From Eledone cirrhosa (taxonomy: Eukaryota): a stretch of 64,000 bases of DNA. Numbering within the stretch: the first letter of the stretch is position 1; each line of letters starts with the position of its first letter. Made by a program: the position numbers and the translations under genes. The notes beneath the pieces were generated by a model. It saw nothing but the letters and a program-made list of their open reading frames with translations, was not told the DNA's origin and did no database searches. The stretch covers positions 245,582,001-245,646,000 of the forward strand of contig OZ024743.1 of NCBI GenBank assembly GCA_964016885.1. Direction: 5' to 3'. This document shows, in pieces, positions 14,799-64,000 of the stretch.

Positions 14799-14869
14799 TA
14801 TTTTATTATGCGCATTTCAAAAACAAATATCATTATGAGATGATATCTACGTTTTCATCAGATAAAATA
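14799..14869 (-). ncRNA. Type I hammerhead ribozyme (Penelope pseudo-LTR)
   Basis: On -: TATTTTAT-CTGATGA-hairpin-GAAA-TGCGC-ATA-ATAAAATA; 8-bp stem I and palindromic stem III. Confidence 0.75.
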
Positions 14870-16110: not shown

Positions 16111-16861
16111 CCTGATAATACTATAATGTATTTAAAAGGTAATAATATTTTTTATGGCCAATGATATGAAGAAAGATGGAAGAGTGGATATGTTGTGGTG
16201 AGTAATAATAAGAATTGAGAAGTGGTTAGGAAGAAAAGTACAGATTAGAGGTTAGAAATTAAAAAGAAAAAAGAAGAAAGGAAAGTGATAAAGAGGAATG
16301 ATATAGAATGAGTAACTAGGATTATATAATGTATAATAAATAATATTGAAATAAGGTAGAAAGATGGGTATATTTTTAAAGAAATATATATATAAGCCTT
16401 TGAGAAAAAGGGTATTAAACTAGTAAAGTATTAGATATTAGCTGTATACTTTATAGAATGTTCTGTGGAATTTATGCAAGCAGAGAGAAAATAAATCAGT
16501 GCGTCTATTTATTATAGAATCTAAATTAGATATAATGGTAAATTTCTCAGATAAACAAAGATTACACGTTCTAGATAGGGAGGCATTCAAGTAGGGAGAG
16601 GCGGAACAAACTTTCCTCCAAGAGATGTTATAGTTAATATTTTTGTCTTTCAAGGACCATATGAGTTCTGAGAGTGCCGTGTTAGTTCTTTTAAGTTGGT
16701 ATTTAAAAGACGAATTGTGATTATAAAATATCACTTTGAAGGAGGTAAAGGAATTGGTATCAGTTATAACTTTACATTCATAGACTAAGTTTTTTTCAAG
16801 ACAATGGTTATTGAGAGGACATTTAGTTTTAACAGGGCAATTACAATTGTGATTAGAGAGA

Positions 16862-16924
16862 TTATCTGATGAAAACGCAGATATCATCTCATGATGATAT
16901 TTGTTTTTGAAATGCGCATAATAA
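16862..16924 (+). ncRNA. Type I hammerhead ribozyme (inverted copy, short stem I)
   Basis: TTAT-CTGATGA-AAACGCAGATATCATC/GATGATATTTGTTTTT-GAAA-TGCGC-ATA-ATAA. Confidence 0.65.
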
Positions 16925-17116
16925 AATACTTGGAACTCTTTTAACCATCTTTTGATTTTATATTATATATAAAGTTATAACTGATACCAATTCCTATGAA
17001 TGTAAAGTTATAACTGATACCAATTCCTTTACCTATTTCGGTTCCACTTCCACCTCCTTCAAAGTGAGATTTTATAATCACAATTCTCCTTTTAAATACC
17101 AACTTAAAAGAACTGA

Positions 17117-17189
<73 letters not shown>

Positions 17190-18700: not shown

Positions 18701-21366
18701 CACAGGTTCTCAGCCCATTTGGGCCAAACGCCCCCTTTTGTCCCTCGAAATCACGAAACGCCCCTACCCTATTTTTCCATTTTTCAATATACTACTGATT
18801 TTGATATCAGTAGATTACTAAAAAATTGATTAACGATATTCCAAAGATACCATTGCAGGCAGCTGAGAGTATAAATACATTCCTTGAAAGGAAATATATA
18901 AATTTCCAAAAAAGGAACATAAATGTTCTTTTTTATGAATAAGGACCAGATGAATCTGTTATATTCCCACCAGGCGATACCAACTATTTTGAACATTTAT
19001 ACAAGAGCAACTCTGTCTATCCAAAGAGTGCTCTTATCTGGAAAGAAAGTGGCAATTATATCATTTCAAAGCTTTCCAATTTTCTCTTTAATGAAACGGA
19101 CAGAATAAATGTTGATATCTAACTTGATGTCCCCTCTGTTTTGTGAACTTAGAGACCACGGAAGAGGGTTTTCCTGACCATATAAGAGGGTATATTTATT
19201 AGTAAATGGTAAAATATATACAACAAATGAGAAAGGAAATTGTAGTAGATGGTTTCCCATCCAGTCAGACTGCAACTACAAATAAAACAATAGCATATCC
19301 AAGTTTTCGGATAAATCAACTTACTTTAACTTTGACCTCATTTCAATAGAACCATTGAGCTTCATGGAGTCTAGCTAACTCTTTAACGTCAGGCTGAATT
19401 TTTGTAAGATGTAGCCAGAGATCTCCACATGTAATTACATTGTAGCGGTTGCGAGCCTTACTGTGCAGTCTGGAAACTGCACCAAACCTCCTCTTGACTA
19501 AGTATGAGCTTGGAAAAGGCAGAGCAAATCTCTTAGCCTCTGTATGTAGGTGTGGAAATCGACGCTGAATTTCCTCTTGCATCCAAAAGAGGGGTTCACC
19601 TATTTGGGGAAATCTAATTTTGATCATGTCATCTGCTTGAAGTTCAATGAATTCTTCCTGAAATTTAACATCGAAATCGTCGACGTTAGCTATGAAGGGA
19701 TCTGCTATACACATTGGGTGGTCCATCGGCAAAAGGTCGACAAAGCGTTCTCTCATGTTGTCTTGTAGCACACGGAGGTGAGTGGTATAAATTTGGAATT
19801 GGTAATCGCTCACAATGTTTTGAACATTGGCGACACTAGGAAAATTATAGAATTCCCATCTACAAAGATTCCTTTCGATGACATTCAATTTGGCCAGGAA
19901 TGTTTTCACAGAATTCCTTGCTTTAAGCAAGGTGATCTTCCCATGCAAAGCCAAAATGACGCTATTGCATTTGTCAAAGATGTCGGTGAGGTAGGCGCAG
20001 TTTTGCCTCACATCGAGGGTTTTCTTGTACAGTTCTGTGTTGCGTCATCGCAGAAACTCAACGATAGAGTCGAACAGTTCAAAGAAGTGAGTAAGGCACT
20101 TGCCCTTTGAAAGGCACCTCACTTCATTATGAAGGAGCAACTTGATAAATTCTTCGTCATTATCTTGGCACAGTTGCCGGAAAATTCGTTCATTGAGGGA
20201 ATGCCGTTTGATAAAATTGATGACATCAATGGCCACCTGCAAGGACTTGCTCAGCGGCTTACTGAGTTTCTTCGCAGCCAAGTGTTGTCGATGAATGACA
20301 CAATGAACAACAAATACAGATAGATTTTCTCTCTTCAGAAGAGTTACGAAACCCTTATGCTGGCCGACCATTGATCTTGCGTCATCCGTAGCACATGATA
20401 CAATGTGTGTTGTATGTGGTCCTAGATGTATGTATTACCTTCCTGTGTGTTGTATGTAGTCCTAGATGTATGTATTACCTGATTATGTATTACATGTGGT
20501 CCCAGCTGTATGTATTATCTGCTTGTGCGTTGTATGTGGTCCTAGATGTGTGTATTACCTCCTTATGTGTTGTATGTGATCCTAGATGTATGTATTACCT
20601 GATTATGTGTTGTATGTGGTCCTAGATGTTTGTATTACTGATTATGTGTTGTATGTGATCCTAGATGTATGTATTACCTGCCTGTGTGTTGTATGTGGTC
20701 CTAGATGTGTGTAATACCTCCTTATGTGTTGCATGTGGTCCTAGATGTATGTATTACCTGCTTATGTGTTGTATGTGGTCCTAGATGTGTGTATTACCTG
20801 CTTATGTGTTGTATGTGGCCCTAGATGTGTGTATTACCTGCTTATGTGTTGTATGTGGTCCTAGATGTGTGTATTACCTGCTTATGTGTTGTATGTGGTC
20901 CTAGATGTGTGTATTATCTGATTATGTGTTGTATGTGGTCCTAGATGTGTGTGCTACCTGCTTCTGCGTTTTTTCTTTTCTTTTTTTTATTTGTACAATA
21001 TCATTTATACAATAGGGAATAAAGTAGATCTACATAGTGTTAACTCGTTACGGTTGAGTCAATAATTTATAAGATTCTAACTGGCTACGCTCAAAGTGTC
21101 CTTGACCCAGTTGACTGTGAGTTTTTTTCCATTTTTAGGATCTCAATTGCCGGTTAATGTCTAGAAACGCCTGCACACCTGCTCACAGCTACAGTCAGAC
21201 CATAGTTATGCTGTCTGCATGCTCGTACAAATGCATTCACACTGGCTGTCTCAGCGACATACAAATATGGCTTATAAAACTTACCAAAGTAAAGAGCCTT
21301 CCAGTGCCCCCCAAAGCTCCAAACGCTACCCTGGAGTTCCGAAACGCCCCGTGTTGAGAACCTTTG
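18701..21366 (-). mobile_element. hAT transposon (Buster/Charlie, ZBED8/SCAND3-like), internally deleted
   Basis: TIRs CACAGGTTCTCAGC / GTTGAGAACCTTTG; TSD ATTTAGTA at 18693-18700 and 21367-21374 (central TA); ORFs with HCVIHRQHLA, LLLHNEVRCLS, YLTDIF and PFPSSYLV. Confidence 0.92.
20401..20960. repeat. 40-bp minisatellite, 14 units
   Basis: Unit GCTTATGTGTTGTATGTGGTCCTAGATGTGTGTATTACCT. Confidence 0.95.
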
Positions 21367-25010: not shown

Positions 25011-25100
25011 AGAGCCTTCTTCAGAATTCTTCATTGAATTTGAAACAGGCTATCACCATCCAAGCCCATTCTCTGAAAATTGCTCAGAGAAATGCAAAGC

Positions 25101-25173
<73 letters not shown>

Positions 25174-25530
25174 GCTAATAGAAGCCTTTTCAAGTCCAAC
25201 TCCTTCATGTCTCCTTGTTATAGCAACGATTGTAGATGTTGATTTTGTGGATCACTTTGATTGGCATGTTCATGAAATATGCTCAACCTTGTAGATGTGT
25301 CAAGTTTCGCTAGATAAATACACCATCCATGGTAAGGATCAGCACGAAAATAAAACCTTCATCTATAACCTGATTTGACATAGGCAGTGAATTCGTTGAC
25401 AAGAGTGCTTGATGCTAGTTTTTCTAAATTTCTAGGTAATCCTTTGCATTTCTCAGAGCAATTTTCAGAGAATAGGCTTGGATGGTGATAGCCTATTTCA
25501 AATTCAATGAAGAATTCTGAAGAAGGCTCT
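25011..25530. repeat. Inverted repeat with ~94-bp arms (25011-25104 / 25437-25530)
   Basis: AGAGCCTTCTTCAGAATTC..GCAAAGCATTA versus TAATCCTTTGC..GAATTCTGAAGAAGGCTCT. Confidence 0.9.
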
Positions 25531-27677: not shown

Positions 27678-28804
<1,127 letters not shown>

Positions 28805-30285
28805 TACTATATATTTTCAGCAGTAATATTATACTATATATTTACAACAGTAATACTATACATTTTCAACAGTAATACTATACTATACTATATATTTTCA
28901 ACAGTAATACCGTACTATATATTTTCAACAGTAATACTATACTATATATTTTCAACAATAATACTGTACTATATTATATATTTTCAACAGTAATACTGTA
29001 CTATATATTTTCAACAGTAATACTATACTATATATTTTCAACAGTAATACTGTACTATATATTTTCAACAGTAATACTGTACTATATATTTTCAACAGTA
29101 ATACTGTACTATATATTTTCAACAGTAATACTGTACTATATATTTTCAACAGTAATACTATACTATATATTTTCAACAGTAATACTATACTATATATTTT
29201 CAACAGTAATACTGTACTATATATTTTCAACAGTAATACTGTACTATATATTTTCAACAGTAATACTATACTATATATTTTCAACAGTAATACTGTACTA
29301 TATATTTTCAACAGTAATACTATACTATATATTTTCAACAGTAATACTGTACTATATATTTTCAACAGTAATACTATACTATATATTTTCAACAGTAATA
29401 CTGTACTATATATTTTCAACAGTAATACTATACTATATATTTTCAACAGTAATACTGTACTATATATTTTCAACAGTAATACTATACTATATATTTTCAA
29501 CAGTAATACTGTACTATATATTTTCAACAGTAATACTATATTATATATTTTCAACAGTAATACTGTACTATATATTTTCAACAGTAATACTGTACTATAT
29601 ATTTTCAACAGTAATACTGTACTATATATTTTCAACAGTAATACTATACTATATATTTTCAACAGTAATACTATACTATACTATACATTTTCAACAGTAA
29701 TACTATACTATACTATACATTTTCAACAGTAATACTACTATACAATACTATATATTTTCAACAGTAATACTATACATTTTCAACAGTAATACTATACTAT
29801 ACTATATATTTTCAACAGTAATACCGTACTATATATTTTCAACAGTAATACTATACTATATATTTTCAACAATAATACTGTACTATATTATATATTTTCA
29901 ACAGTAATACTGTACTATATATTTTCAACAGTAATACTATACTATATATTTTCAACAGTAATACTGTACTATATATTTTCAACAGTAATACTATACTATA
30001 TATTTTCAACAGTAATACTGTACTATATATTTTCAACAGTAATACTATATTATATATTTTCAACAGTAATACTGTACTATATATTTTCAACAGTAATACT
30101 GTACTATATATTTTCAACAGTAATACTGTACTATATATTTTCAACAGTAATACTATACTATATATTTTCAACAGTAATACTATACTATACTATACATTTT
30201 CAACAGTAATACTATACTATACTATACATTTTCAACAGTAATACTACTATACAATACTATATATTTTCAACAGTAATACTATGCT
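28805..30285. repeat. 27-bp minisatellite with higher-order duplication
   Basis: Unit TTTTCAACAGTAATACTRTACTATATA; variant blocks recur at a 914-bp offset. Confidence 0.95.
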
Positions 30286-30382
30286 ACACAGACGGCTTAT
30301 CATCTGTTTATCCAAGCGAAGCTAGGTACGTCAGCTATATATATATATATATAGTTATGTAATAAACAACATAAGGCAATTA

Positions 30383-30442
30383 TTCCATTTACCAGTGGTT
30401 TCTTAAAAGCAAAAGATTTTGCTTTCAATCCTCAGAATGAAA
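30383..30442 (-). ncRNA. Type I hammerhead ribozyme (inverted twin, CTGAGGA core)
   Basis: Reverse complement of 30532-30591, differing at the variable N7 position. Confidence 0.75.
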
Positions 30443-30531
30443 AAATCCTGGTCTGTTTATTGAATTTGGATTTAAAAAACCTTTTTTAAAACCTTTTTTA
30501 AAATCCAAATTCAATAAACAGACCAGGATTG

Positions 30532-30591
30532 TTTCATTCTGATGATTGAAAGCAAAATCTTTTGCTTTTAAGAAACCACTGGTAAATGGAA
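30532..30591 (+). ncRNA. Type I hammerhead ribozyme
   Basis: TTTCATT-CTGATGA-TTGAAAGCAAAA/TTTTGCTTTTAA-GAAA-CCACTG-GTA-AATGGAA. Confidence 0.8.
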
Positions 30592-30684
30592 TAATTGCCT
30601 TATGTTGTTTATTACATAACTATTAAGCTCTGTTACCTACATAGAGCACTCTTTTTTCCTGGACTTTTCCGACGGAATTACTTC

Positions 30685-30728
<44 letters not shown>

Positions 30729-37801: not shown

Positions 37802-38711
37802 GTTATATAATGCTGAAGACGCCGGTTTAATTAGGGGAAAATGTTGATAGAAGAGGAATTTCTGATATCAAACTTTCGTTATAGCTATCGTAAGTATAAT
37901 ATCGCCATAGCTTCATTATGATTTCACAACGTATTTTTTTACCTTGCACGTCGAAATCATTTGTGTGACATTGTGCTATGTATTATATAAGGAGAGTAGT
38001 GAATGTCATCCGGTTGTTGTTATCATAAGACAATTTCTATGATATTTGTGTTTTAATCTCAATCTAAGTGCTCCCTTGGGCGATATTTAATTTTAGCGGC
38101 CTAAATGCCGCTTACTTGCTGTAGTTGCTGCTTACTTCAATGTATGAGGCTATTCCAACAAATTTACATTCCCCCTTTTTTAGCTGTTAAAAGAAATATA
38201 GATTTATTTATTGTTTTTTTTTTTACCATTTCTCCACCTTGATCCTTCTTTCGAAGTGGTATCGGAGGAAGAGGACCATTTGTTGGCCGGCGACATATCC
38301 CCACAGTTTCCTCGTTGCAAACGCATCTGGGACATTTCTTTTCCAAGGGGTTTCCGTCCCGGAATCCGTGTCTGTAGAGCCTTTCCCGAACGGGCAGGGC
38401 CCCTCGGTATAATAGTAAGTATTAGTGGTTGTAATAAAAATGCAATCAAAATGTAATAAATACCTTCACTGATTTCTTTCCTTATATTATCAACAGAAGT
38501 TGGTATGTCACCCAAAGTTCGCTTTGTATGTTCCCGAATAGCAGTGAATTTTGATAAAACTGTGTAGTTGAAGAGGATAAGTATGAAAGAACAGTCATTT
38601 AAATTTACAGATGGACAGATGTGGTGTTTGGCAGGGTTTGAGATATATAGAAAAATAATTATTTACAGAAAAAGAAAATAATAATAAAGAATTATTATAA
38701 TTTTTTTAAAG

Positions 38712-38870
38712 ATTTATATCTTTTTGGACTACACATGGATATTTGTCTTACTGTGGAGAAGGAATTAGAAACAGTTTTATCAAAATTCACTGCTATTCGG
38801 GAACATACAAAGCGAACTTTGGGTGACATACCAACTTCTGTTGATAATATAAGGAAAGAAATCAGTGAAG
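38712..38870 (+). pseudogene. RMND5: Captured RMND5 (GID2/CTLH E3 ligase subunit)-like first coding exon
   Basis: MDICLTVEKELETVLSKF resembles the RMND5A N-terminus as recalled (MDQCVTVERELEKVLHKF); AG at 38710-38711 and GT at 38871; no other RMND5 exon seen. Confidence 0.72.
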
Positions 38871-38924
38871 GTATTTATTACATTTTGATTGCATTTTTAT
38901 TACAACCACTAATACTTACTATTA

Positions 38925-39390
38925 TACCGAGGGGCCCTGCCCGTTCGGGAAAGGCTCTACAGACACGGATTCCGGGACGGAAACCCCTTGGAAAAGAAAT
39001 GTCCCAGATGCGTTTGCAACGAGGAAACTGTGGGGATATGTCGCCGGCCAACAAATGGTCCTCTTCTTCCGATACCACTTCGAAAGAAGGATCAAGGTGG
39101 AGAAAAAGGCACTCAGTCCCAGCCAATTCCATGAAAGATGGGTGAAAGTAGCAATTATGGCCTGTGTAAGTGGGCCATCTCTCTATATCGGCTTGTACAG
39201 GTAAGAGAAGAAGGGAGCATCCCCCTCTCTCTGTGCTCCCTGGCAGAAAGGTCGCACACTTTCTACGGGGGTGTGTGTGACCCCAAAAGGCTAATAAATC
39301 GCAAACAAACAAACAAACAAACAGGGGGCAAATAAAGAAATCTATGCCCCAGTGGCAAATAAATCGCAAAAAAAAAACAATAAATAAATC
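38925..39390 (+). mobile_element. Tx1 3' fragment inside the fold-back arm
   Basis: YRGALPVRERLYRHG..CPRC..EETV and FFRYHFERRIKVEK; homologous to 5624-6349. Confidence 0.75.
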
Positions 39391-39467
39391 TATATTTCTT
39401 TTAACGGCTAAAAAAGGGGGAATGTAAATTTGTTGGAATAGCCTCACATTGAAGTAAGCGGCATTTA

Positions 39468-40775
39468 ATAATAATAATAATAATAATGAAATTGTGTACA
39501 GTGCTCAGGTGCACTACAACTCATCAAAAGTGCATGTATAGTACATAGAATAATGTACAAATGTCAGGAAAATGAACAGTGTACGAGTCATGATATAACA
39601 ACAATAATGAAATATTGTGTACAGTGCCCAGGTGCACCACAACTCATCAAAAAAGTGCATGTACAGTACATAGGGCAATGCACAAACATCAGTAAAATAA
39701 ACAGTGCACGAGTCATGATACACACGTGTGCATGTATATGGAAGGGGTACATCAGGTGTAGTTTTGGCATATTTCGGGAAGCATGAGTGTCTTAAAGGAT
39801 GCAGTGTCTCGGCAGCTAACAATTGACGCAGGCAGTTTGTTCCATGCTTCAGCAACTCTGAGCGTGAAAAAATGTCTACGAAAGTCATGGGAGCTGTGCT
39901 GTTTTCCCGATCTTGTAGGCATGTCCACGTGTGTTAGACACATGGAGATCAAAGAGGCGCTCAGGGTTGCAATTGGCGAGATGGTTAAAAACTTTGTGGG
40001 TATTCACCAAGTCCATTGCCAGACGTCGGAGCTTCAATGAATCCATGCCCAGGGAAGCAAGGCGTTCAGAGTATGGTAGGTGTCTGATGGAGGGTATGCG
40101 CTTGGTTGCACGTCTCTGAACAGTTTCCAGGAGGTCAATGTTCTGAGCAAGATAGGGGTCCCAGACTGATGATGCGAATTCCAAGTGTGGTCGTACCATA
40201 GCTGTATACAGTTTTAAATAGATGGCTGGAGAGCGGCTAACAAAGGTCTTGCTGAGTGATGCCAAGACACCCTCGGCCTTCTTGACAATCTTAGAGTCAT
40301 GCTTTGTCCAACGCAAATCGTTGCTGACAGTAATGCCCAGGTCACGTTCACAAGAGGACTTTTTGATCTCAGTGTTGTGGAGGGAGTATGTGGACGCTGG
40401 ATTTTTTCTTCCAAAATGCATGGTGGTACACTTGTCCACAGCCAGCTTCAGTTGCCAGTCTGTGATCCATTGCTGCATTGTGTCCAGGTCTGATTGTAGG
40501 AAAGAGTTGTAAATTTCAGGATCAGTCCTTTTGATTTCAAGGTACAGCTTGATGTCATCTGCATATTTTAGTACCGTGGCATTCTGTAAGTTGGCATCTA
40601 TGTCGTTAATATATGCCACAAACAAAAGAGGACCAAGAACAGATCCCTGTGGTACACCAGATGACATCTCATATGGTGAAGAATGCTGTCCTAGAACCGT
40701 GACTACTTCTTTTCGGCTGAGAATTAAGGATTTCAACCAGTCGAAAAGATCATCCCTCACACCCATTGCAGAGAG
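39468..40775 (-). mobile_element. CR1-group LINE, 5'-truncated, with (ATT)n tail
   Basis: SGVPQGSVLGPLLF, YADD and VRPHLEFA motifs; TTTA on both sides; same family as 61450-64000. Confidence 0.92.
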
Positions 40776-40939
40776 TTTAGGCCGCTAAAATTGGATATCG
40801 CCCTCCCTTGTTATAGAAGACTGAGTTACTCTTTTACAAATATGGGGATCGTCAATTATACAGGCCTCTTTCTGTGACTCCAGCGTTTGCAGCATTTAAT
40901 ACTCTTACTATTTAGATACACCTGCTGGAGATGCTACAT

Positions 40940-41290: not shown

Positions 41291-42468
41291 CTCAATCAGG
41301 ATGATGTTTTTTTGCCTACTACGACCATATAACTGTCAGATATGGAAGTTTTGGACAGCCCGAGGAAAATGTTTTCTTCCCACGCTCACCCTCATCTCCC
41401 ATGATTGGGCTGTTTGCAAGAGGATCTTAGTCTGTTTTTACTTATATTGTGGCACATGTGGTTGTATGGCGTGGTTTCATTAGCTACGCCATAAAAATAA
41501 ATACATGTGGTTGATCACACTTTGTGTGTGTAACAAGATATATTGGCACATGCCTAGATATAGTATAATATATTACAATTTTGTAAGTGTCTCATTCTAG
41601 ATGTACCAAATTCTGCCAACTACAGCAGCTATTTTTCAAAATAAATATTACAGAATACTGTTATACTTAGGGAGGGTCATGTTGCTGATAAAAACATATG
41701 CACCAGTTGAGTTTCATTTGGGTTTTATCATTAGTTAGGTAAGTAATCCTTTCTCGGTTAGTTTAACACTTTACCTCACATAATTATTTCCCATAATATC
41801 GAATCTATGAAATGTTGATGTCATTTATTTTGAGAACAATACCTTAACATAAGTATGAACAGAAAGAGGTTAGAAAATTCTGGCCGTATACGGCTGGTTT
41901 AAATGCTAAAGGGTTAATAACCAGGTGGTTAAGTGCCAAAGCACTTTCATCACACATTCTTTGTGACTATTCTTGTTCCTTTGTGTCTTCTCATTATTTA
42001 CTCCATCTTAGAGGTTTACTATGTTGGTCTGTCAAGGCTTACAACACTGGCTGGAGTAACTTTATTACAGATGATTTGGTATGAGTTAGTGGGGGATTAA
42101 GAGATGGAAGTAACTGGGCTGACAGGGGACCCCACATTATTTAACAAACCCTAAATTAATTTTTTTTGTTATCATAAATAATACACTGGTCCCAATGAAA
42201 TTTTCAGTCAGGGGCCCCATACAAGCTGAATCGACCCTTGATGTGAACTATGTAGTAGAAATGTAGGCTTTGTAATTTTCTTAGTATGATCAGAGTAAGA
42301 AGTGTCAAAAACTAGATTCATCAATTTACCAAACTGTAAGATGAAACTATTTTATGTGGGAGAAAGAGGTGTACATTATAGGACTAGCTGAGCAGCACCA
42401 AATACCCTGGTACCAGCCCTACTCACACTGTTTTTCTTTATTATATTATTTTCTACTTTTACCTGTAG

Positions 42469-42575
42469 GTGGTGGAAGTGGTTTCATTGGACGTAATCTT
42501 TGTAAGAGATTAAAGTCTGTTGGTTATAATGTAATAGCTGTGTCCAGATCTGCAGGGTTGAACAAAATTACTTGG
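42469..42575 (+). CDS. SDR39U1: SDR39U1 exon 2
   Basis: tag|GT GGT GGA AGT GGT TTC ATT GGA..KITW|gtgagt; GxGxxG NAD(P)-binding motif. Confidence 0.93.
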
Positions 42576-43279
42576 GTGAGTCATTACTATAAAACTTCAC
42601 TACATATACGTTTTTTTACTACTCTTAGTCATTAGACTGCGGTCATGTGGGGGCACCATATTGATTTAATCAGTCATATGGACCCCAGTATTATTTTTTC
42701 AAATCTGGTACTTAATTTATCTATCTTTTTTTTTTACGAACAGCTAAGATAAAACACAGACACAAACATAAACATGAATATACACATATCTACATACATA
42801 CATTGTATATATTTGTCAACCTGCTGAATTACAGGACACAGACACAAACCCCTTCTTCCTTGCAGAAAGAACTCTTCAGTTGGGACAATAACCTTTCTTG
42901 TGTTGGTGCCACGGAAATGCACCTGGTATACCTTGTAAAGGGGTTGGCAACAGGAAGGACACTCAGCTGTAGAAACCATGTCTAAAAGGATTAAGAGGGC
43001 CCTTCAGTTGTGTCAACCACACAACGACCTCTTTGGTGATGGTGATCTACATGATGATCGGACCCAGTACATGCTGTAAAGTGGTTGGTGATAGAAATGG
43101 TATCCAGCTGTAGAAAGCTTGCCAAACAAAGGTTTGAGAGGGCCCTTCAGTTATGTCAAAGACATAACAACCTCTCTTGTGCTGGTATACACAGTAGAAT
43201 ATGGGACTATATAAATGAGATGCAGAGTCCCCGGCCTGTCTGGGAAATCAGTAGCCCCGCTTCTGTCCAACTCTTGCTA

Positions 43280-44300
43280 GAAGGGAAAAAGACTTAAGGT
43301 GGTGGACAGTTTTGTGTGTCTCGGAAGTACACTTAGTAGAGATGGTATCCTCGATGTTGAAATAGATCAAGGATTGCAAAAATGAGTCTTGCCTTCAGGA
43401 AGCTTGAGAAGCGAATCTGGTCAAATCGAGGTATCACTAGAAACACAAAGCTCTCTCTGTATGTGGCCTGTGTTCTTACAGCCTTGCTATACAGATGTGA
43501 GACATGGATAACTTACAGGAATCATATCAGGCAGTTGGAAAGATTTCATCAGCATTGTATAAGATACATCCTGAACATCAAGTGGTCTTCTTACACACCT
43601 GATGCTGCTGTATTTGAGAAAGTGGGTAGCACCAGTATTGAGAGGAGGATTATTATGAACCAGATGTATTGGGCTGGACATGTGGTCAGGATGAAAGAAG
43701 GAAGGCTGCCTAAACAGTTATTTTATGGGGAGCTGACCAGAGAAAAAAGGCCACTGCATAAACCAAAGAAGCAGTTTAGAGATGTCATAAAAGACAATTT
43801 TAAATCCCTGAAGATTGATATGGAGAACTGAGAGAGACTGGCTGCAGGCCATACATCATGGAGAAAGATCATCAATTATGGATGTGATATCTTTGAGAAA
43901 AAGTGAGTGGAGCATGCTGTTTTGAAGCGTTGACTTTGTAAGCGGGTCTCAAGTGCAGTGCCTTCAAAAATCCAGCAGGAACTGAAGTGCAATGTATATG
44001 GTTGATTTCTTCTAATAAGAGCTGGTTTTATTAATCATCTGAAATCACATGAGCCAAGGAGAAATCGAGCCAACTGTGAGATGGTTCTACCGCCACACAC
44101 TCCATGGTACATTTGCAGTGAGTGTGGTTAAACTTGCAAGTCAGCGGGTGCACTGACCAGACATGGTAAAATGCATGAAGACAGCCGGTATTGCCAGTGT
44201 CACATCTGTGAACGTACCTGCAAAACAAAAGCGGGTCTGAAAGGTCACCTGCGTGCACATGATCGTGCAATGTTCAATGGAGGGGTGGCACACTTCTGAC
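43280..44300 (+). mobile_element. RTE (BovB-like) LINE 3' part with C2H2 finger remnants
   Basis: LLYRCETW, LERFHQHCIR, WAGHVVRM and RLPKQLFYGEL; CHICERTCKTKAGLKGHLRAH. Confidence 0.85.
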
Positions 44301-45049
44301 AAGAAGTAGCAATCAACATGTATATGTTTGTATATACAACAGACTTCTGCAGTTTCCATCTACCAAATTTTACTCACTAGGCATTGGTAAACCCAAGGCT
44401 ATTGTAGAAATTACTTGCCCATGGTCCTGCACAGCGGGACTGAATTCAGAACCATGTGGTTGCAAAGTGAACTCCTTAACTACATGCCCATATTCACATC
44501 TTGAAACATTTTCTCAATCAAGTCAAAACTGGGCTTCTTTATTTCCCCCAAAATGTTATATCCTCTTTTGTCGCACATGAGAATCTGGTTTTCCCTTGAC
44601 CCACGGTCAGCCTTATAGCCAAACAGCAGCATCTGGCTCATTTCAGTGCCTTCTTCATCAACTGGTACTCTTCTTGAGGATAAGTACACTCACATTGGAG
44701 TCACCCAACACCTTAAGATCTGCATGTGTGAATCATATAAATGCTACTATTGAAAATTTATGCTACATCTATTTTCTTGTCATCACAGTATGAATCATTT
44801 TCTTCACTGCGCCATTTTAAATGATGTCATCACTGCCTGTTCTTGATGGGAATACTTTTGCCATCTTATTTGTACATTGCAACTAAGATTACCATTCAGC
44901 TGAGGGTGTAGTAGTGTCTCCTCTCCATTCCACTCCCTCTTTTTCATGATATAAACATATTTTGAAATTAAAGTTGCATAACATGTATACATACAAAAAC
45001 AAATTCTCTCCACTGTTTATGTTTAACTTTGACATGTTTCTTCACCCAG

Positions 45050-45135
45050 GAAGAGCTACAGAGAAATGGACTTCCAAATGGCTGTAAAGTTGTTGTTAAT
45101 TTAGCGGGTGAAAACTTAATGAATCCTTTAAGAAG
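45050..45135 (+). CDS. SDR39U1: SDR39U1 exon 3
   Basis: cag|EELQRNGLPNGCKVVVNLAGENLMNPLRR|gtgagg. Confidence 0.92.
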
Positions 45136-45449
45136 GTGAGGGCTGTCATACTTATTGCTTATTTAGTATGATGGGTAGTGCCTATGATCCTTTTTCAAAT
45201 GCCTGGTAAGCAAGAAGGAAGAAAGTATTCTCAAACTGGTGACAGCTCAAATACAAGTAACAAATTGGATTCCACTAAAGACACCCAAGGGCCAGGTGAA
45301 ATGTTAATGTGTGTTTGAACTGCATCAGTTACAACAGTGAGTGTTCCCCTTAATCAACAGAGCAGCCTGCTTGTGATATTAAAATACAAGTGGTTGACCA
45401 TTCCACAGATACTTGTATCCTTAACGTAACTCTCGGGGAGATTCAGCAT

Positions 45450-45635
45450 AATTGTTTCTACTTTTGGCACAAGGCCAGCAATTACCCAGTGCATTACTGG
45501 TACTTTATTTTATCGACCCCGTAAGGATGAAAGGCAAAGTTAACCTCGGCAGGATTTGAACACTGAATGGCAAGGGCCGTAACTCTATGCGTCAAAGCAT
45601 GGCGTCCGACCTACCGACACTGCCAATCCACCGCA
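45450..45635 (-). mobile_element. Young SINE in intron 3
   Basis: Same family as 15389-15586. Confidence 0.85.
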
Positions 45636-46899
45636 TAATAGTGTGTAACTAGCCTGGCTCTTTGAATTACAGATCAACTTGTTTTTTCCAGCTGAGTGGA
45701 CTGGAGCAGTGTGAAATAATGTATTTTATTCAAGGACACAAATGCTTTGTCCAGTCCAGAAATTAGATGCATGACTTTATGATCATAAGCCGAACACCCC
45801 AACCACTAAGCCATACTCCTTCATGGTATTGTTAAACCAGGTGATCAATTAAATAATTTTATTGCTCAAGTAGGTCACATTGGAATTTGAAATCAGAATA
45901 CAACAAACCCTGGAGCAGATACCACAACAAATACTACAAGGTATCTCATCCAATGCTCTAACAATTTTGCCAATCCATCGCCCTGGACTGATACCTTATT
46001 TTATTGACCATAAATTGTTGTTTAGTTCCATGTCAGCTCTTACCCAGTATAATCAAAAATATTCTAGCAGTAACTATCCTGTCTTTTTATACTGACAGTG
46101 TATCTAGAACTGCTTTATTTAATGTCCTTCCTTTTTCAAGATGATAGAATATAATTTGAGAGAGATTTAACAGCTAGTTCTAGCAGGTTGAGCTACTGCA
46201 TAAAGGTCTTCTTGTTGGCTCAAGTATGGTTAAGTTGTCTGCTTTGATTGAGCAGACAATAAAAAGACATGACATTCTAGTTATGACCATCCTATCTTAA
46301 TATATCTGTGACTATCTTATTCAGTGAATCTCTTTTAGAGACAGTAGAGCATGATTTGAAACAAATTTCATTTTTATTTCATAACCACATAGATGCTCTC
46401 TTATTGACTGATGTGCAGTAACGTTATCATATTTGGTATGATACACAGGTGGATTAAATCATTTTGTGTGGTAACTACTAAGTTTATCTGAACACCAGGG
46501 ACTAAACTTTGTTGAAGCTAGGATTAAATATTTTAATATATTTCTAGTTGATTATCCTTTTTGATGCCAAATTGCAAGAAGCTGTCCTGGGTTGTTTTAA
46601 AGTGTTTATATCTAGTTTGTGATAGATTTGTTTATATCTATTTAAAAACCTTTCTTCATAATTTTATGAAAGGACCTTTAAGTTATGCTCCAGACACAGG
46701 CTTGAGAAGGAAGTTAGATTATTAAATTTCTCCAAATTCTTGATTATTTTCAAAATGATTTGAAAATTATAAGCAGTGCATTTCAATAGAAATATTGTAA
46801 TGAATGGGATAAATGTAGCCTTAACGTTAATGTTGGCACTTTCAACAAGATATAATGCTGGTGTTATTTAAGTCCAATTTATGTTACTACATCTTTCAG

Positions 46900-47021
46900 A
46901 TGGGGCCCAGCTTTTAAGAAAGATCTTTATGACAGTCGCATTAGCACCACCAAAGCCTTGACAAAAGCTATTTCTGAAGCACAGACACCACCTGAAGTAT
47001 TTGTAAATACCTCTGCTGTAG
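46900..47021 (+). CDS. SDR39U1: SDR39U1 exon 4
   Basis: cag|WGPAFKKDLYDSRISTTKALTKAISEAQTPPEVFVNTSAV|gtaagt. Confidence 0.92.
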
Positions 47022-47424
47022 GTAAGTAGAAACTTGAAAATCATCCTTACAAGACAAAATAGTATACATAAAGTTTTCTCAGGGAATAGATACAATGTAG
47101 AATAGGGAGAACTCTTTAGGATAGCTGAGGGCATGAAAACATCTCTAGTACATGATGAAATGTACCTAGTACACATTTAAAAAGGAGTAGGTAAATAAAT
47201 GGTGATAATGTACAGTAGAGAGAACTCTTTCTTCTTGCTAAGGACAATCAACCTCTCTAGTACTAATATCACAATAAAATGTACCAAATACACTTTGTAA
47301 AGAGGTTGATGTTAAGGAGGGCATCCAGTCACAGAAACCATAACAAAAATGGAATGTACAAGCAATGATTCACCTCATTGAAAATAATTTCCGGATAGTT
47401 TTGTAACTAATGTTATATTTATAG

Positions 47425-47607
47425 CATTGGCAGTATCGGTAGAGGGTTGGACGCCATGCTTTGACGCATAGAGTTACGGCCCTTACTATTCTGAGTTCAA
47501 ATCCCGCAGACTTTAACTTTGCCTTTCATCCTTACGGGGTCGATAAAATAAAGTACCAGTAATGTACTGGGTAATTGCTGGCCTTGTGCTAATAGTAGAA
47601 ACAATTA
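47425..47607 (+). mobile_element. Young SINE in intron 4
   Basis: Same family; inverted relative to 45450-45635. Confidence 0.85.
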
Positions 47608-48173
47608 TTTTATAATCTGAAATAAATTGTTACAATGAGAGTCAATCACTGTAGTGTTGATAACATTTTTGACAATTGAATTCATTACTTGGATTCCCTT
47701 TGTGATTGTAGTCATTTCTCTACAATTATGTCACTAATAATCTTGAGAAGGGCATGAACATCATATAATCTTTTTCATTAATGTTATCACCGTCATCATT
47801 TAAAACCCATTTTCCATGCTGGCATCGTCATCACCGCTTTGCATGAGTTAGCTCTACTCTAGCACTGCCTCCCTCCACCTGTTGCATTTCTTCGTCATCT
47901 CCTCTATGAGGTTCAGCAATTTGAAATCAGCTCTCATCACTTCAGCCAAAATTTTCCTTTGTTTTCCTTCCACTGAGATCACTCAGTACTTCTTCACCTA
48001 ACAATCATCATCCATACCAGTGCAATCTTCTCTCCTGCATACAATATCTGATTCCTCTTATGCCAAGTTTTTTCTCTTAGTTCCTCCATGCTTCCTCTTT
48101 CATACACTCAAATAAATGTGTTGGACATTACACTAAGGTGTTATTCACATAGATCAAATTCTGAAAATTGCAG

Positions 48174-48326
48174 GGTTCTATGCTCCTGATGCCAATAAAT
48201 GTTATACAGAGGAAAGCGAAGGGGGTAATCATGACTTCTTGTCTCGTCTTTGTTCTGAATGGGAAGCAGCTTCAACATTGAAACCTCTTCTATCTGACAC
48301 AGTACGGCAGGCTATTGTTAGAGTTG
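48174..48326 (+). CDS. SDR39U1: SDR39U1 exon 5
   Basis: cag|GFYAPDANKCYTEES..DFLSRLCSEWE..RQAIVRV|gtaagt. Confidence 0.92.
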
Positions 48327-49269
48327 GTAAGTATTGCCTTTTTTCTTTCTCTTTTATTATTTTACTGGTTTCACCACCTTGAAGGAGTTTAGGTGATGAT
48401 ACCGACTTGGTTGTTTGGGATTGTTTAAATAAGGTGAATATGCGAAGTGAAATGGATTGAAACAATATTACTTGATTGGGGTAGTCCGTTATTGGTAGTT
48501 AGCATTTGTAGGGTCGGTATTCCTGAATGATAGGGCCGAGAATGTTGTGTTTCTGACGTGTTGGCATCTCAGCAATATGTTACTTGGAGGACTGCGCTTC
48601 ACATCGATATGGGTTTTCGCAATGTTGTGCTTTTGCGATCTGGTGGTTCAGCAGTTTTCCCCACTTCACGATTTGAGGCTGTTGTTCACTCCTCATCTGT
48701 TGCCTTCTGTGGTGTGTTCATGGGTGGATTTCAGTACTTTCATCATCATCACAATCATATTCACCATAAACAACACAACCACCACTTCTTCCTCCTCCTC
48801 TACTTCTCATCCCCTTTCTCCTTCTTCTTCTCCTCACTTGTATGCTTACCATTATCCTTCATAGCAATATGGCCCTACCTGTCATTCTTGTCATTATACT
48901 GGTCGACCTTCGAATTCCTGCTGACCACTTAACAGATGCTTCTCCCCCCCCCCCCAACTTTTCCCCTTTCATTCTTTCCAATTTTGATATTTATAATTTC
49001 ATCTAAAGAAAATGTTATGCCCATCCCAATTACAATTCTTTACAATTCATCGCCTCTGTCATACTGAAAACCACTATTCACCATCTACCCCACTCCCGTC
49101 TTGCACCCACCCACTGTAAACTCTCATATCTGAAGAAGTGCCAATTAAGAGTCAGGATCCGATCAGATGATCAAACCCAAGCTGATCGATATGGAAACAA
49201 ATTGTAATAAAGTTTACAAAAAGCTGCAATTCTTATTGTCACTTTATATATATATATATATATATATAT

Positions 49270-58868: not shown

Positions 58869-59278
58869 GTATTGTTCTAGGAAGAGACGGTGGAGTTATT
58901 CAGAACATGTACCCTATCTTCTACATGGGACTGGGTGGAAGACTTGGCTCTGGTAAGCAATGGTTTCCATGGATACACATCAGTGATATTGTTGGCATCT
59001 ACCAATATGCCATCTGTAATTCCACCATAAAAGGTGTCTTAAATGGAGTAGCACCACAACCTCAAACAAATTCTGAATTCACACAAACTTTTGCAAAAGC
59101 CATCAATCGTCCAGCTATTTTCCCTGTACCAGAGTTTTCCATAAATCTTATCTATGGCCAAGAGAGAGCCAGTGCTATACTTGAAGGCCAAAACGTTTTA
59201 CCAAAAAGAATGTTAAAATCTGGTTATAAGTTTGAATTTCCTGATTTGGTTTCAGCCTGCCAGAATCTTTGTCAATAA
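58869..59278 (+). CDS. SDR39U1: SDR39U1 exon 6 (last coding exon, DUF1731-type C-terminus)
   Basis: cag|GIVLGRDGG..GLGGRLGSGKQWFPWIHISD..NGVAP..LEGQNVLPKR..FEFPDL; spliced CDS is 894 nt. Confidence 0.95.
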
Positions 59279-59898
59279 TTTTTTACTATGATGTTTGCAT
59301 AGTTGACAGAATTTGGGGATTTACTAAATGATATCAGCCTGGGACCTTTGGTAAACTTTCCAGTATAAGTTCATGATAGTATATGTTTTAGATGCTATGT
59401 AAGAAAGATTAAAAAATAATAATTAAAATGTTCAAATTGAAGGGAAAAAAATTAAATTGGATTTGTTTTTATTGATTTGATACTATTAATTTATGAAATT
59501 AAATGAAAATGGCGTAGGCATTACAATACAACGGGAGGAAACATAATAGTACCACAGATGTGAGACAAAAGAACTTTGATAGACTATATATATATATTTA
59601 TATCTGTATTTTTAAACGTTGGTGAATCAATGATAAATATTGATTGCCAGATAAATTAACTATAGAGGTATAAAAAATACAGAAGCGAAAACCAACCCAA
59701 ACAGTGAGTGTGTTCTGTTATTATTTCTGGCAATATTATAACAATATGACCCTCCCCAAATATACCAATATATATATATATACAAGTTGAAATAAAATGA
59801 AAACGAAATTTCATTTCTCACTCTTAGTACGGCACTTACTTAAATGTAAGTATGTGTGTATACGTACATACATATATGTATACAGACGTACAGTAGCA

Positions 59899-59952
<54 letters not shown>

Positions 59953-60146
59953 TATACATATATACATACATACATATATATACATATATACATACAGGTA
60001 CACATACATATATGCACGTATCAGTTTAGCGGACGCTTATTATAACGCCGCTTTGTTCGTTTGTAAACAAACTGAACAGCCTGAATGTTATGCCGTACGG
60101 TGTTAAGGCAACCACGTCACCTTTTTGTTCAACACTGACACAGGAA

Positions 60147-60187
60147 CGATGTACTAGTTTCAAGCTTGTTAGCTATCATCAGCACCG
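60147..60187 (-). ncRNA. Minimal type I hammerhead ribozyme (inverted twin)
   Basis: Exact reverse complement of 60443-60483. Confidence 0.85.
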
Positions 60188-60442
60188 TATACCCATCTGC
60201 CAGATAGTTGAACGTTCAAAAGTATATACTTTCCTTATGAAAATTAACGGCTGAGCAGCCTAATTTGCATGCCGTACTAAGAGTGAGAAATGAAATTTCG
60301 TTTTCATTTTATTTCAACTTATCGTTCTCGGTATGCCTGACCGACATAACTCACTCGATATGCAAATTAGGCTGCTCAGCCGTTAATTTTCATAAGGAAA
60401 GTATATACTTTCGAACGTTCAACTATCTGGCAGATGGGTATA

Positions 60443-60483
60443 CGGTGCTGATGATAGCTAACAAGCTTGAAACTAGTACATCG
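60443..60483 (+). ncRNA. Minimal type I hammerhead ribozyme
   Basis: CGGTG-CTGATGA-TAGCTAACAAGCTT-GAAA-CTA-GTA-CATCG; palindromic CTAG stem III. Confidence 0.85.
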
Positions 60484-60632
60484 TTCCTGTGTCAGTGTTG
60501 AACAAAAAGGTGACGTGGTTGCCTTAACACCGTACGGCATAACATTCAGGCTGTTCAGTTTGTTTACAAACGAACAAAGCGGCGTTATAATAAGCGTCCG
60601 CTAAACTGATACGTGCATATATGTATGTGTAC

Positions 60633-60667
<35 letters not shown>

Positions 60668-61449
60668 TGCTACTGTACGTCTGTATACATATATGTATGT
60701 ACGTATACACACATACTTATATATATATATGCATATTTGTGTAGATATGGATGTATTTATGTATATATGATGTGTTATGTGTTTTATGCTTGTATATGTA
60801 TAGAAAAAAAAAATTTCCTACGTGTCTAAACTGAAGACTGACAATGTAAGTTACCTCCCTTTCGTTGATATTTTTAATCCTTTTTGTTACTTTGACAGGG
60901 TTTCCCAACCTTCTCTCAGCCAGTGCCCCCTTTGGGCGCAAACTTTTTTGTCAACACCCCCAGCAAATTAAATTTCAAATAAGATACTGAATTCATCTTA
61001 CATCAAATGGGTACAAAACCTAAAACAAATGTGTGTGTGTGCACATCTGTGGTTGGGCCTTTAATCGCTAGGGGTCAATTTAAGTTCAATCGCAGAAAGG
61101 AATTCATCTTTGCATGCTTGTGTACATGGGTTGGTCAAGTGGGGTGCCTCAGTGGTTGTGGAGGATGCATGTATATATTTGTGTATATAAGTGGTCGTGG
61201 AGGTGCCATGGCAAAAAAGCACCCAACACTCACTGTAAATGAGGTTGGTGTTAGGAAGGGCATCCAGCTATAGAAATCAAGCCAGAATCAGTTCCCGTAT
61301 GAGCAAGACAAGGTCAGCTGACCGGACACTGCCCACAACAGGACAACCCGTCTAACCCATGCTAGCGTGGAAGAACGGACGTAAAACGGTGATGATATGT
61401 ATATATATACATACTTATATGTGTGTGCATGTATGTATATACTCGTGTA

Positions 61450-64000
61450 TAATAATAATAATAATGCAATATTGTGTACAGTGCTCAGGTACACTACAAC
61501 TCATCAAAAAGTGTATGTATAGTACATAGGGTAATGTACAAACGTCAGGAAAATGAACAGTGCATGAGTCATGATATACACGTGTGCATGTGTATGGAAG
61601 GGGTACATCAGGTGTAGTTTTGGCGAATTTCGGGAAGCATGAGGGTTTTAAAGGATGCAGTGTCTCGGCAGGCAGTTTGTTTCATGCTTCAGCAACTCTG
61701 AGCGTGAAAAAATGTTTCCGAAAGTCATGGGAGCTGCGCTGTTTTCTGATTTTGTAGGTATGTCCACGCGTGTTAGACACATGGAGATCAAAAAGGTACT
61801 CAGGGTTGCTGTTGGCGACATGGTCAATAACTTTGTGGGTGTTTACCAAGTCCATTGCCAGATGTCGGAGCTTCAATGAATCCATGCCCAGGGAAGCAAG
61901 GCGTTCAGAGTATGGTAGATGTCTGATGGAGGGTATGCGCTTGGTTGCACATCTCTGAACAGTTTCCAGGAGGTCAATGTTCTGAGCAAGATAGGGGTTC
62001 CAGACTGATGATGCGAATTCCAAGTGTGGTCGTACCATAGCTGTATACAGCTTTAAATAGATGGCTGGAGAGCAGCTAACAAAGGTCTTGCTGAGTGATG
62101 CCAAGACACCCTCGGCCTTCTTGACAATCTTAGAGACATGCTTTATCCAATGCAAATCGCTGCTGACAGTAATGCCCAGGTCACGTTCACAAGAGGACTT
62201 CTTGATATCAGTGTTGTGGAGGGAGTATGTGGACGCTGGACTTTTTCCTCCCAAAATGCATGGTGGTACACTAGTCCACAGCCAGCTTCAGTTGCCAGTC
62301 TTTGATCCATTGCTGCATTGTGTCCAGGTCTGATTGTAGGGAGTTGTAGATTTCAGGATCAGTCTTTTTGATTTCAAGGTACAGCTTGATGTCATCTGCA
62401 TATTTCAGTACCGTGGCATTCTTTAAGTTGGCATCTATGTCATTAATATATGCTGCAAACAAAAGGGGACCAAGAACAGATCCCTGTGGTACACCAGATG
62501 ACATCTCTTTTAGGCTGAGAATGAAGGATTTCAACCAGTTAAAAAGATCATCCCTCACACCCATTGCAGAGAGTTTTGCCATAAGTCTTTTGTGTGGCAC
62601 AGAATTAAAACCCTTAGCGAAGTCAAGGTAAACAACATCCACCCATGAGCCGCTGTCAGTGATCCGGGTAATGTCTTCAAGGAACTCGATAAGCTGATCA
62701 CAACAGCTGGAGTTAGGGATAAATCCAAACTGTGAGAGCTCCAGAAGTTCCAAAGTGTTTCTCTGATACAGGATTCCATCAGTTTGGCAATACAGCTAGT
62801 AAGACTGACTGGGCGATAGTTGACAGGTGACGTGCGGTCACCCTTTTTGAACAGGGGAATGACACTGGCAGTTTTCCACTGCTCCGGAGTAGCACCATTG
62901 TTGAGACAGTATTGAAAGAAGAAAGAAAGCTGGTGCAAAAGGAAGTACCCGCCACGTTTGAGAAGCAGGTATGTAACACCATCAAGACCAGGGGAGGCAT
63001 AGTTGCGCTTATTCTTAAGGTGACGTCGCAACATTGCAGGTGTAAATTCCATAGTTCTTATGGAATTTGATGTTAGAGATGGTAGAGATGGTACATTCTG
63101 GTTTTCAACAGTAAAAGTGCTTGCATAGCACTCAGCAATGAGTTCTGTGGATTTGGGATCGTCAGTGATCTGGCTTGTGTGAGGATTGCGAAGAGGACCA
63201 ACTGGAGAGTGAGGTCTCTGCTTTGAATGAACATATTTCCAGAACACCTTACTGTCAGGATTGGTGGCTATGCACTGTTCAAATTCAAGCACTGCCTTTT
63301 TTGTCACTTGCTTGAGATGGTTGGAAGATTTATTCCGCTTTTTTCTGTTGGCATCTGATTTATGCAGTTTATATTCCCGTTCAGCGTTCCGACGTTCTTT
63401 CCTGGCAAGTCGGACCGCTGAAGTTTCCCAAATTGCACTTTTGGGTGGTTTTTTTTCTGCTTACGTGGCACCGATGCTGCACACGCTATCCATATTGAGT
63501 CCAGGATGCTCTGGAATATAGTGTTCACATCTCCAGAGTTATAGAACTCATGCCAGTTTGGGCGCTGTCGCTCAGTACAGTACAAGTTCCAATCTGCTTT
63601 CTTCCAATCAAAGCAAGCAGATTGGAGATGGTTCTGGTTTTTGTTGCTGCCCGCAAGAGCCAGATTGGCAATGATCATAGCATGATCAGGGTCGCCTAGA
63701 GGTTCCTCAGTAGTACAACTGATAACCACTTCAGGAGTAGTGGTGAAGATCAGGTCCAAAGTGTTGTCACCTCTTGTTGGAGAGGTGACTACTTGTTACC
63801 AGTTTGAGTCCAGCACTAGCTCAAGGAAATCGTTTGCACTTTGTGGCTAACGAAAGGTTTCCCAATCGATCTCAGGATGATTGAAGTCACCTGCAATAAA
63901 CACATAAGTGGCTGTTTTCCTGGCAGCAGCTCTGAGGATATCGCAAAGCTGTGTGTCCTGATGGTAGTTTGGGGGGCGATAAACAACACCAAGCAGAAGT
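61450..64000 (-). mobile_element. CR1-group LINE (APE plus RT), frameshifted; runs off the right edge
   Basis: GDFNHP, LDLIFT, DH, SPGLDG, NYRPVSLT, YLDFAK, YADD; (ATT)n tail. Confidence 0.93.

Follow-up and report, generated by a model that had tools for sequence, protein, structure and literature searches.

Penelope-like elements (PLEs) are known for insertions in which an inverted, 5'-truncated copy lies head-to-head with an adjacent copy, with palindromes at the junction, a tail at one end only and, as target, TA microsatellites that show no evident duplication (PMC3846280, PMC8557442). Most PLE insertions are reported to be 5'-truncated (PMC8557442; bioRxiv 10.64898/2026.07.22.740005), and the tail is usually given as 30-40 nt long (PMC8557442). 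A purified PLE protein has been reported to cut and extend both target strands and to start reverse transcription at two RNA sites bounding the tail; the ribozyme in that study needed the protein for activity and was dispensable for insertion (PMC11167929). In truncated PLEs, Cervera and de la Pena (2014) described dual hammerheads on opposite strands, 100-700 bp apart (PMC4209133). The link between PLEs and animal retrozymes has been argued mainly from vertebrates, and in one study 8 of 9 Xenopus retrozyme dimers were reported without cleavage (bioRxiv 10.64898/2026.07.22.740005). With respect to the ribozyme itself, a U10.1-U11.1 mismatch is a described natural hammerhead variant, reported as the most active mismatch (PMC3088659). 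Amongst cephalopods, 235 Hammerhead_1 loci have been reported for a squid genome (PMC6962438), and Penelope expansions have been noted in surveys of their repeats (PMC8967140).

The window analysed here, i.e., the whole stretch of 64,000 nucleotides from Eledone cirrhosa, contains at positions 59784-60719 a large palindrome with one hammerhead in each arm. With a probability of about 0.8, we consider it to be a single head-to-head insertion of a very abundant, non-coding hammerhead repeat of ~460 nt, which is likely a non-autonomous, retrozyme-like passenger of a Penelope-like retrotransposon.

Anatomy of the palindrome

The palindrome and its immediate borders comprise the following features.

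59767-59783, unstranded: left TA run, the likely target site; a target duplication is not discernible
59784-59834, minus strand: 51-bp segment A, serving as tail in the left copy and having the same sequence as 60270-60320; AATAAA at 59791 on the plus strand
59835-59846, minus strand: spacer of 12 nt between the end of segment B and segment A, forming with A the one-sided tail of ~63 nt
59847-60270, minus strand: left arm, a 5'-truncated segment B whose TA-rich tract exceeds that of the right arm by 64 nt
60146-60188, minus strand: minus copy of the type I hammerhead, core 60182-60152, predicted cut after 60152
60267-60272, unstranded: head-to-head junction, a 6-bp palindrome with a 1-nt overlap at 60270
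60270-60320, plus strand: segment A as the 5' start of the right copy, according to the 51-bp inversion and the family contigs
60321-60359, plus strand: segment C, single here; throughout the family it directly adjoins A and B
60360-60719, plus strand: right arm, segment B with its TA-rich 3' tract and without the tail
60442-60484, plus strand: plus copy of the type I hammerhead, core 60448-60478, with U10.1.U11.1, CUAG and a predicted cut after 60478
60720-60730, unstranded: right TA run, likely target site

When the left arm (59847-60270) is read on the minus strand and aligned to the right arm (60360-60719, plus strand), 360 aligned positions contain one substitution, of the CpG-to-TpG type (60218 vs 60412), and one gap of 64 nt, which sits in the TA-rich tract. 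The 51-bp pieces at 59784-59834 and 60270-60320 are 100% complementary to each other. With A denoting this 51-bp piece, C the 39 bp following it and B the arm, the plus strand from 60270 onwards has the order A-C-B, and the minus strand has the order B, 12-nt spacer, A, ending at 59784. The two copies are thus permutations of one ~460-nt non-coding unit, joined at their 5' ends. The left copy alone carries the ~63-nt extension, TA runs flank both sides, and no direct tandem of units is present at 59784-60719. Within segment B, the stretches 60360-60379 and 60529-60548 form a near-repeat (part of repeat family D12, 78% over 27 nt).

Several claims of the preliminary description could be confirmed at this level. 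It had placed the palindrome 0.5-1.4 kb past the stop codon of SDR39U1, and the element does begin 506 nt after the TAA at 59276-59278. The inverted arms and a second, 51-bp inversion containing AATAAA were borne out by the alignment, with the amendments that the arms differ by the substitution and gap given above, and that the outer piece of the second inversion (59784-59834) is the one-sided extension of the left copy. An open reading frame had been said to be missing, in agreement with the longest non-microsatellite stop-to-stop frames of 59784-60719 being 86 and 74 aa long and without a Pfam match. Since this interval also contains neither a PLE reverse transcriptase nor a GIY-YIG open reading frame, the insertion is not an autonomous PLE. 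ARAGORN reported 0 tRNAs and hence gave no indication of a tRNA-derived head.

The hammerhead ribozymes

Both hammerheads have identical 31-nt cores (60448-60478 on the plus and 60182-60152 on the minus strand). The GUA triplet is located at 60476-60478, and CUAG lies between GAAA and UA in the place of stem III, which in a monomer comprises 1 bp only. Stem I has 6 bp, and stem II has four positions closed by a 6-nt loop and begins with the mismatch U10.1.U11.1, where a G-C pair is usual; the conserved core and the NUH triplet are intact. The mismatch was considered as a new variant and rejected as such, being already described (PMC3088659). A structured descriptor found six hammerhead motifs in the 64-kb window, compared to 0.03 on average and never more than one in 200 dinucleotide shuffles. 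At the gathering score, Rfam yielded 0 matches in the window, and at relaxed thresholds there were weak full-length matches to Hammerhead_HH9 on both arms (18.6 bits vs 52 required; E = 0.15 and 0.036); microRNA matches at relaxed thresholds were rejected as TA-microsatellite noise. An exact search with the ribozyme pattern gave 0 hits in metagenome and 0 in viral contigs.

In folds of the whole 940-nt region (-691 kcal/mol for the plus and -715 kcal/mol for the minus strand), all 43 ribozyme bases (43/43) pair with the opposite arm on either strand. The minimum free energy structure of the monomer (-11.0) is an inactive fold, compared to -3.5 for an active-like fold; for the dimer, the double hammerhead reaches -23.8 versus -27.7 for the cofold minimum, which is not the double hammerhead. 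According to these predictions the monomeric ribozyme would be inactive, and cleavage would require a dimer, as provided by tandem transcripts of source copies. Read-through transcription, whichever side it comes from, produces the antisense arm first; the hairpin is therefore predicted to win over cleavage, and in read-through RNA of this locus a hairpin of ~360 bp would be expected to mask the ribozyme. A free ribozyme is predicted only for RNA starting inside the central loop, and it would then need a partner in trans.

The earlier claims on the ribozyme have had mixed fortunes. The identical hammerheads with GUA and palindromic CUAG are present as described, with the U10.1.U11.1 mismatch as an additional feature, and the proposed cleavage as a dimer agrees with the predicted folds. 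However, Hammerhead_1, the Rfam model that had been suggested for a scan, is not among the matches listed, Hammerhead_HH9 staying below its gathering score. Nor does the suggested switch between self-cleavage and double-stranded RNA hold up well: it would be lopsided, with all ribozyme bases predicted to be paired in the hairpin, and opposite-strand pairs of hammerheads occur three times in the window and again at further loci of this family. A special status of the palindrome is not supported in this respect; head-to-head insertion usually leaves such pairs behind.

Further inverted repeats in the window

Two more inverted pairs with twin hammerheads are found in the window, both upstream of SDR39U1. 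The first of them is a palindrome at 30351-30686 with hammerheads at 30435 (minus) and 30539 (plus), arms of 136 bp (96%), a long stem II, a near-palindromic stem III and a one-sided extension of ~63 nt between TA runs; a 27-bp minisatellite array (28804-30290) lies immediately to its left. The other one (14756-17120) has hammerheads at 14861 (minus) and 16866 (plus) in 110-bp arms ~2 kb apart, which enclose a GIY-YIG-like frame of 140 aa (16441-16860, minus strand). This frame falls into an Atlas cluster at 0.93 in which 33% of the members carry GIY-YIG; it has no match in Pfam or NCBIfam, and an adjoining 48-aa frame has a sub-threshold Pfam match (E = 0.0096). By its motif pattern the remnant is presumably Neptune-like. 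The plus copy of this pair continues with a stretch of the endonuclease region that is partly duplicated, followed by a TA run, and two SINE-like copies lie inside the pair. Sequence kinship among the three twin-hammerhead families did not rise above that of shuffles. Therefore, with three unrelated pairs in a single window, the layout is common in the Eledone genome.

Other repeats of the window include a young inverted repeat at 38126-39463, with inner arms 38229-38563 and 38771-39105 (99.7%), outer arms 38126-38223 and 39368-39463, an AT-rich centre of 207 bp and an insert of ~260 bp in the right arm; it contains no canonical hammerhead, and four frames tested in it have no Pfam match. A 94-bp inverted pair (25011-25104 and 25437-25530, 96%) encloses a long TA run and ends at a CT run, likewise with no hammerhead by the structured descriptor, and a hammerhead-like word at 8488-8540 fitted a relaxed pattern only, failed that descriptor and was rejected. 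A frameshifted LINE remnant (61450-64000, minus strand, RVT_1 with E = 1.8e-26) ends ~730 bp to the right of the palindrome, a LINE-related 3' fragment (89%) is located at 39471-40778, and a further tandem array at 20404-20970. The window's only gap consists of 200 N (9361-9560).

The repeat family in public sequencing runs

Core words of the repeat reach a share of 0.21-0.60 in 19 runs among the 24 listed (14 studies, 15 organism codes). For the family comparison, a 392-nt stretch (60245-60636) was matched at ≥80% likeness in the runs X1, X23, X5 and X15; the flanks and the 3' UTR lie outside this stretch, the small-share run X20 was left out, and the runs listed include no RNA run and thus say nothing on expression either way. 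The stretch is matched by 4,899 contigs in X1, by 82,758 of 12,467,656 reads (0.66%) in X23, a RAD library with the species label of X1 from a different study, and by five contigs in X5, which has another organism code; X15 yielded 0 contigs despite a word share of 0.24 (44% of the run read). The family is very abundant, these run counts not being copy numbers.

The order A-C-B is contiguous in X1 contigs (60276-60387 and 60285-60400) as well as in an X5 contig (60278-60385). Letters of the end of segment B and the spacer precede A in 55 X1 contigs, which confirms the permuted unit and fits tandems or tails alike, and no family contig spans a whole ~460-nt unit. Family contigs stop at the end of segment A and then run into TA, with loose ends behind 60310 in six and behind 60303 in 64 of them, in confirmation of the tail end. 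In X23, 31,440 reads match only from 60544 on, with diverse letters upstream and a depth several-fold that over the ribozyme, and 60544-60636 may be a 3' module common to other families or to an autonomous partner.

The head-to-head junction recurs elsewhere with 60270 as fixed point and a variable partner. Among 15 joints listed for X23, at least four lead from 60270 to the opposite strand, at 60418, 60487, 60496 and 60566, and record 9 of X5 joins 60270 to 60354 on the opposite strand. The depth at the palindrome's own junction (60245-60258) is 3 in X23 and 0 in X1. As the reference left of 60270 is the inverted arm, the depth edge at 60270 was rejected as evidence of a start site when taken by itself, and the fixed point rests on the repeated joints instead. 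An origin of these joints from restriction-ligation chimeras is unlikely, since the window sequence reveals no site common to the four partner positions, and the same junction is found in an X5 contig and in the Eledone cirrhosa assembly.

Ribozyme variants among those listed fall on N7 (60452) and loop 2 (60462). In stem I, a change from G60445.U60481 to U.G is seen in X23 at 5.0/5.8% in one mate class and 51.3/48.9% in the other; the change is not phased, amounts to a single event in one subfamily, and disagrees with the contig depth sums of X1 (4% vs 38%). Changes at 60435, 60436 and 60489 would convert wobble to Watson-Crick pairs in one register. Amongst the variants listed, none falls into the core (P = 0.23, 12 core positions), and none into core, stem II and CUAG taken together (P = 0.05, 24 positions), which on its own is weak evidence. 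All T changes of ≥8% in X1 are placed elsewhere, and the family in that run is therefore characterised by U10.1 and U11.1; in X23, four T changes have no assigned position. Judging from X1, in which no change of ≥8% affects it, the mismatch seems to be carried by most copies of this high-copy repeat family.

In the open literature on octopus retrozymes, Penelope and hammerheads, a body of work distinct from Repbase, Dfam, subscription papers and supplements, no account of the ~460-nt family was found; the family may already be catalogued.

Probable origin by a Penelope-type insertion

The insertion consists of an inverted, 5'-truncated copy head-to-head with a direct copy, and it has a tail at one end only, the ~63 nt of spacer and A on the left being longer than usual. 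It carries a type I hammerhead with a palindromic short stem III in the position of the terminal repeat, and an AT-rich microsatellite target is indicated by the TA runs on both sides, again with no discernible duplication. All of this is in line with Penelope-type integration, and the view of the preliminary description that the unit is non-coding, hammerhead-bearing and Penelope-derived is supported to the extent of this anatomy. Some hallmarks of a non-LTR retrozyme are found as well, namely a non-coding unit of ~460 nt that has a single type I hammerhead and is present in 4,899 contigs and 0.66% of reads. Reverse transcriptase or endonuclease sequences tied to the family were found neither in the 64-kb window nor in metagenome or viral contigs, and we infer the Penelope partner from the anatomy and the ribozyme only.

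In the mechanism that we propose, an RNA starting at ~60270 and spanning more than one unit would be bound in trans by a Penelope-type protein with reverse transcriptase and GIY-YIG domains. The protein would nick both strands of a TA-rich site and prime two cDNAs at points ~63 nt apart. The right cDNA would extend from the point without the tail to the 5' end of the RNA (60270), and the left cDNA would start from the tail point and stop early at 60360, after which the 3' ends of the two cDNAs would be joined with 1 nt overlap. A 7-bp inverted repeat (60281-60287 and 60351-60357) surrounds the central loop near the truncation points 60360 and, in X5, 60354; it could aid the joining of the two cDNAs. 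A simple fold-back from the tail-bearing cDNA was rejected, since A-C in the loop lies in sense orientation relative to the tail-bearing strand. Because both arms carry the same alleles at the sites that vary within the family, one template and one event are suggested, with the proviso that later conversion between the arms would look alike. That the ribozymes face apart is likely no more than a consequence of the two arms having had a common template.

Alternative explanations and the neighbouring gene

The best surviving alternative, improbable as we judge it, regards the unit as the 5'-truncated pseudo-LTR of an autonomous element of the Penelope or Neptune type, with the fold-back stubs as failed insertions. 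It would account for the many X23 reads that match from 60544 on and have diverse upstream letters (31,440, see above), for the 74 and 128 unaligned upstream bases of records 3 and 4 of X1, and for the endonuclease-like remnant that the sister pair at 14.7-17.1 kb retains, and it would suit the reported prevalence of 5'-truncation amongst PLE insertions (PMC8557442; bioRxiv 10.64898/2026.07.22.740005). However, the present unit closes on itself at ~460 nt, with A-C-B contiguous in two organism codes and B-spacer-A in 55 contigs, and a closed unit of that size has no space for an open reading frame. Moreover, the 5' junction recurs precisely at 60270.

With the head-to-head insertion of a non-coding repeat as the preferred reading, the question of a role for the adjacent gene can be addressed, for which two further features are required.

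58871-59278, plus strand: last coding exon of SDR39U1 with DUF1731 and TIGR01777 matches; neighbouring gene, outside the element
59408-59503, plus strand: the variant poly(A) signal ATTAAA in four copies (59408, 59422, 59451, 59498), a candidate native 3' end of SDR39U1

SDR39U1 consists of five exons from 42465 to the stop codon, the four upstream ones at 42465-48328, and the best named matches of its last exon are SDR39U1-like proteins of Octopus bimaculoides (79%) and Argonauta (74%), which marks the host as an octopod. It might be assumed, along the lines of the preliminary description, that the gene has co-opted the insertion, using its AATAAA as a distal poly(A) signal or being tuned by ribozyme cleavage or by an edited or silencing hairpin. 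The short distance to the stop codon is compatible with this, as is the fact that the element's AATAAA at 59791 is the sole one on the plus strand from the stop codon to 61500; a near-perfect duplex of ~360 bp is predicted in read-through RNA, and Xenopus retrozyme copies that overlap exons are reported to tend toward 3' UTRs (bioRxiv 10.64898/2026.07.22.740005). However, AATAAA occurs on the plus strand of the 64-kb window at 1.16 per kb, the four ATTAAA signals lie 130-220 nt past the stop codon and upstream of the palindrome, and the central base of the element's signal (60311 in segment A) is altered or absent in about half of the X23 reads. Polyadenylation at this AATAAA would imply that the mRNA ends upstream of both arms, and in read-through RNA the ribozyme is predicted to be wholly masked. 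In addition, with 1 difference in 360 the arms seem to be of recent origin, and the twin-hammerhead layout is present twice more upstream of the gene. Co-option is therefore highly improbable in our view; an effect of the palindrome on SDR39U1 looks unlikely, and this copy is most likely neutral for the gene.

Even less credible is an assembly or library artefact, i.e., a fold-back chimera of a single-copy repeat, despite the difficulty of assembling long near-perfect palindromes beside TA runs (PMC8557442) and despite the near absence of reads across the 60270 junction (depth 3), since one substitution and the 64-nt tract distinguish the arms, the one-sided spacer-A tail typical of the family is not what a fold-back chimera would add, and the same type of junction is seen in independent runs and another organism code; the 6-bp palindromic site at the junction may be cut by a RAD enzyme. 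Least tenable of all, and in large part refuted, is a DNA transposon of the foldback or MITE type whose long terminal inverted repeats contain a hammerhead-like word by chance, an element that would share the long inverted arms, the TA flanks and the lack of an open reading frame, but not the variation of arm length by locus around one fixed breakpoint, the asymmetric ends with their tail, the circularly permuted unit, or a ribozyme motif far above chance whose variation is compatible with its structure.

Significance

Taken by itself, the palindrome is a commonplace retroelement remnant of a type already described. A regulatory role in SDR39U1 would matter more; however, nothing found points that way. 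What is of value is the family, which is very abundant, free of open reading frames and ribozyme-bearing, and whose copies seem to have in common a 5' junction at a fixed point and a tail on one side. It offers, if modestly, a large natural sample of Penelope integration. The formation of tandem and inverted PLE structures was named as unresolved by Craig et al. 2021 (PMC8557442), and a genome-wide tally of the family's ends would probe the two-cDNA model and carry the link between retrozymes and PLEs to cephalopods.

A bolder picture, tentative and on balance doubtful, is that hammerhead RNAs of ~460 nt make up a huge, so far undescribed family in octopod genomes which is both retrozyme and Penelope passenger, with a fixed transcription start and dimer cleavage despite U10.1.U11.1, and which spreads by two head-to-head cDNAs. 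If this were true, the combination of one fixed and one variable junction per copy would make the formation of Penelope inverted structures directly testable, and the palindromes would supply long double-stranded RNA to octopod editing or silencing wherever genes like SDR39U1 read through.

Comparison with known systems

The closest likeness is with the EN+ Penelope-like elements (Penelope/Poseidon, Neptune and Hydra), as described in PMC3846280 and PMC8557442. It comprises the inverted truncated copy, the head-to-head arrangement and the junction palindrome, and furthermore the extension at one end, the TA-microsatellite target and the hammerhead within the repeat. In contrast to these elements, the Eledone unit has no open reading frame between repeats, its tail is ~63 nt rather than 30-40 nt long (PMC8557442), and the repeat closes on itself at ~460 nt.

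The dual hammerheads reported from truncated PLEs of Schistosoma mansoni and other metazoans (PMC4209133) share the location on opposite strands (266 bp apart here), the palindromic 15.2-16.2 region and a predicted dependence on dimers. However, the Eledone hammerhead has a canonical 6-bp stem I and a 4-bp stem II with a 6-nt loop, whereas the minimal hammerheads of that report have a long stem II, and it has U10.1.U11.1 where theirs have a conserved G-C pair (PMC4209133).

Like the animal non-LTR retrozymes described from coral, mussel, axolotl and Xenopus (PMC7229834; bioRxiv 10.64898/2026.07.22.740005), the Eledone repeat is short and non-coding and has one type I hammerhead per unit. Its ~460 nt fall inside the range of 51-972 bp reported for animal retrozymes, with which it further shares the low GC content, the very high copy number and a proposed status as PLE passenger, and its short stem III resembles that of the amphibian retrozyme forms described as dimer-dependent. 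The Eledone locus differs in being an inverted pair known here from DNA alone, whereas the described retrozymes form direct tandem arrays. Finally, its stem II opens with U.U, as it does in the natural U10.1-U11.1 hammerheads reported previously (PMC3088659).
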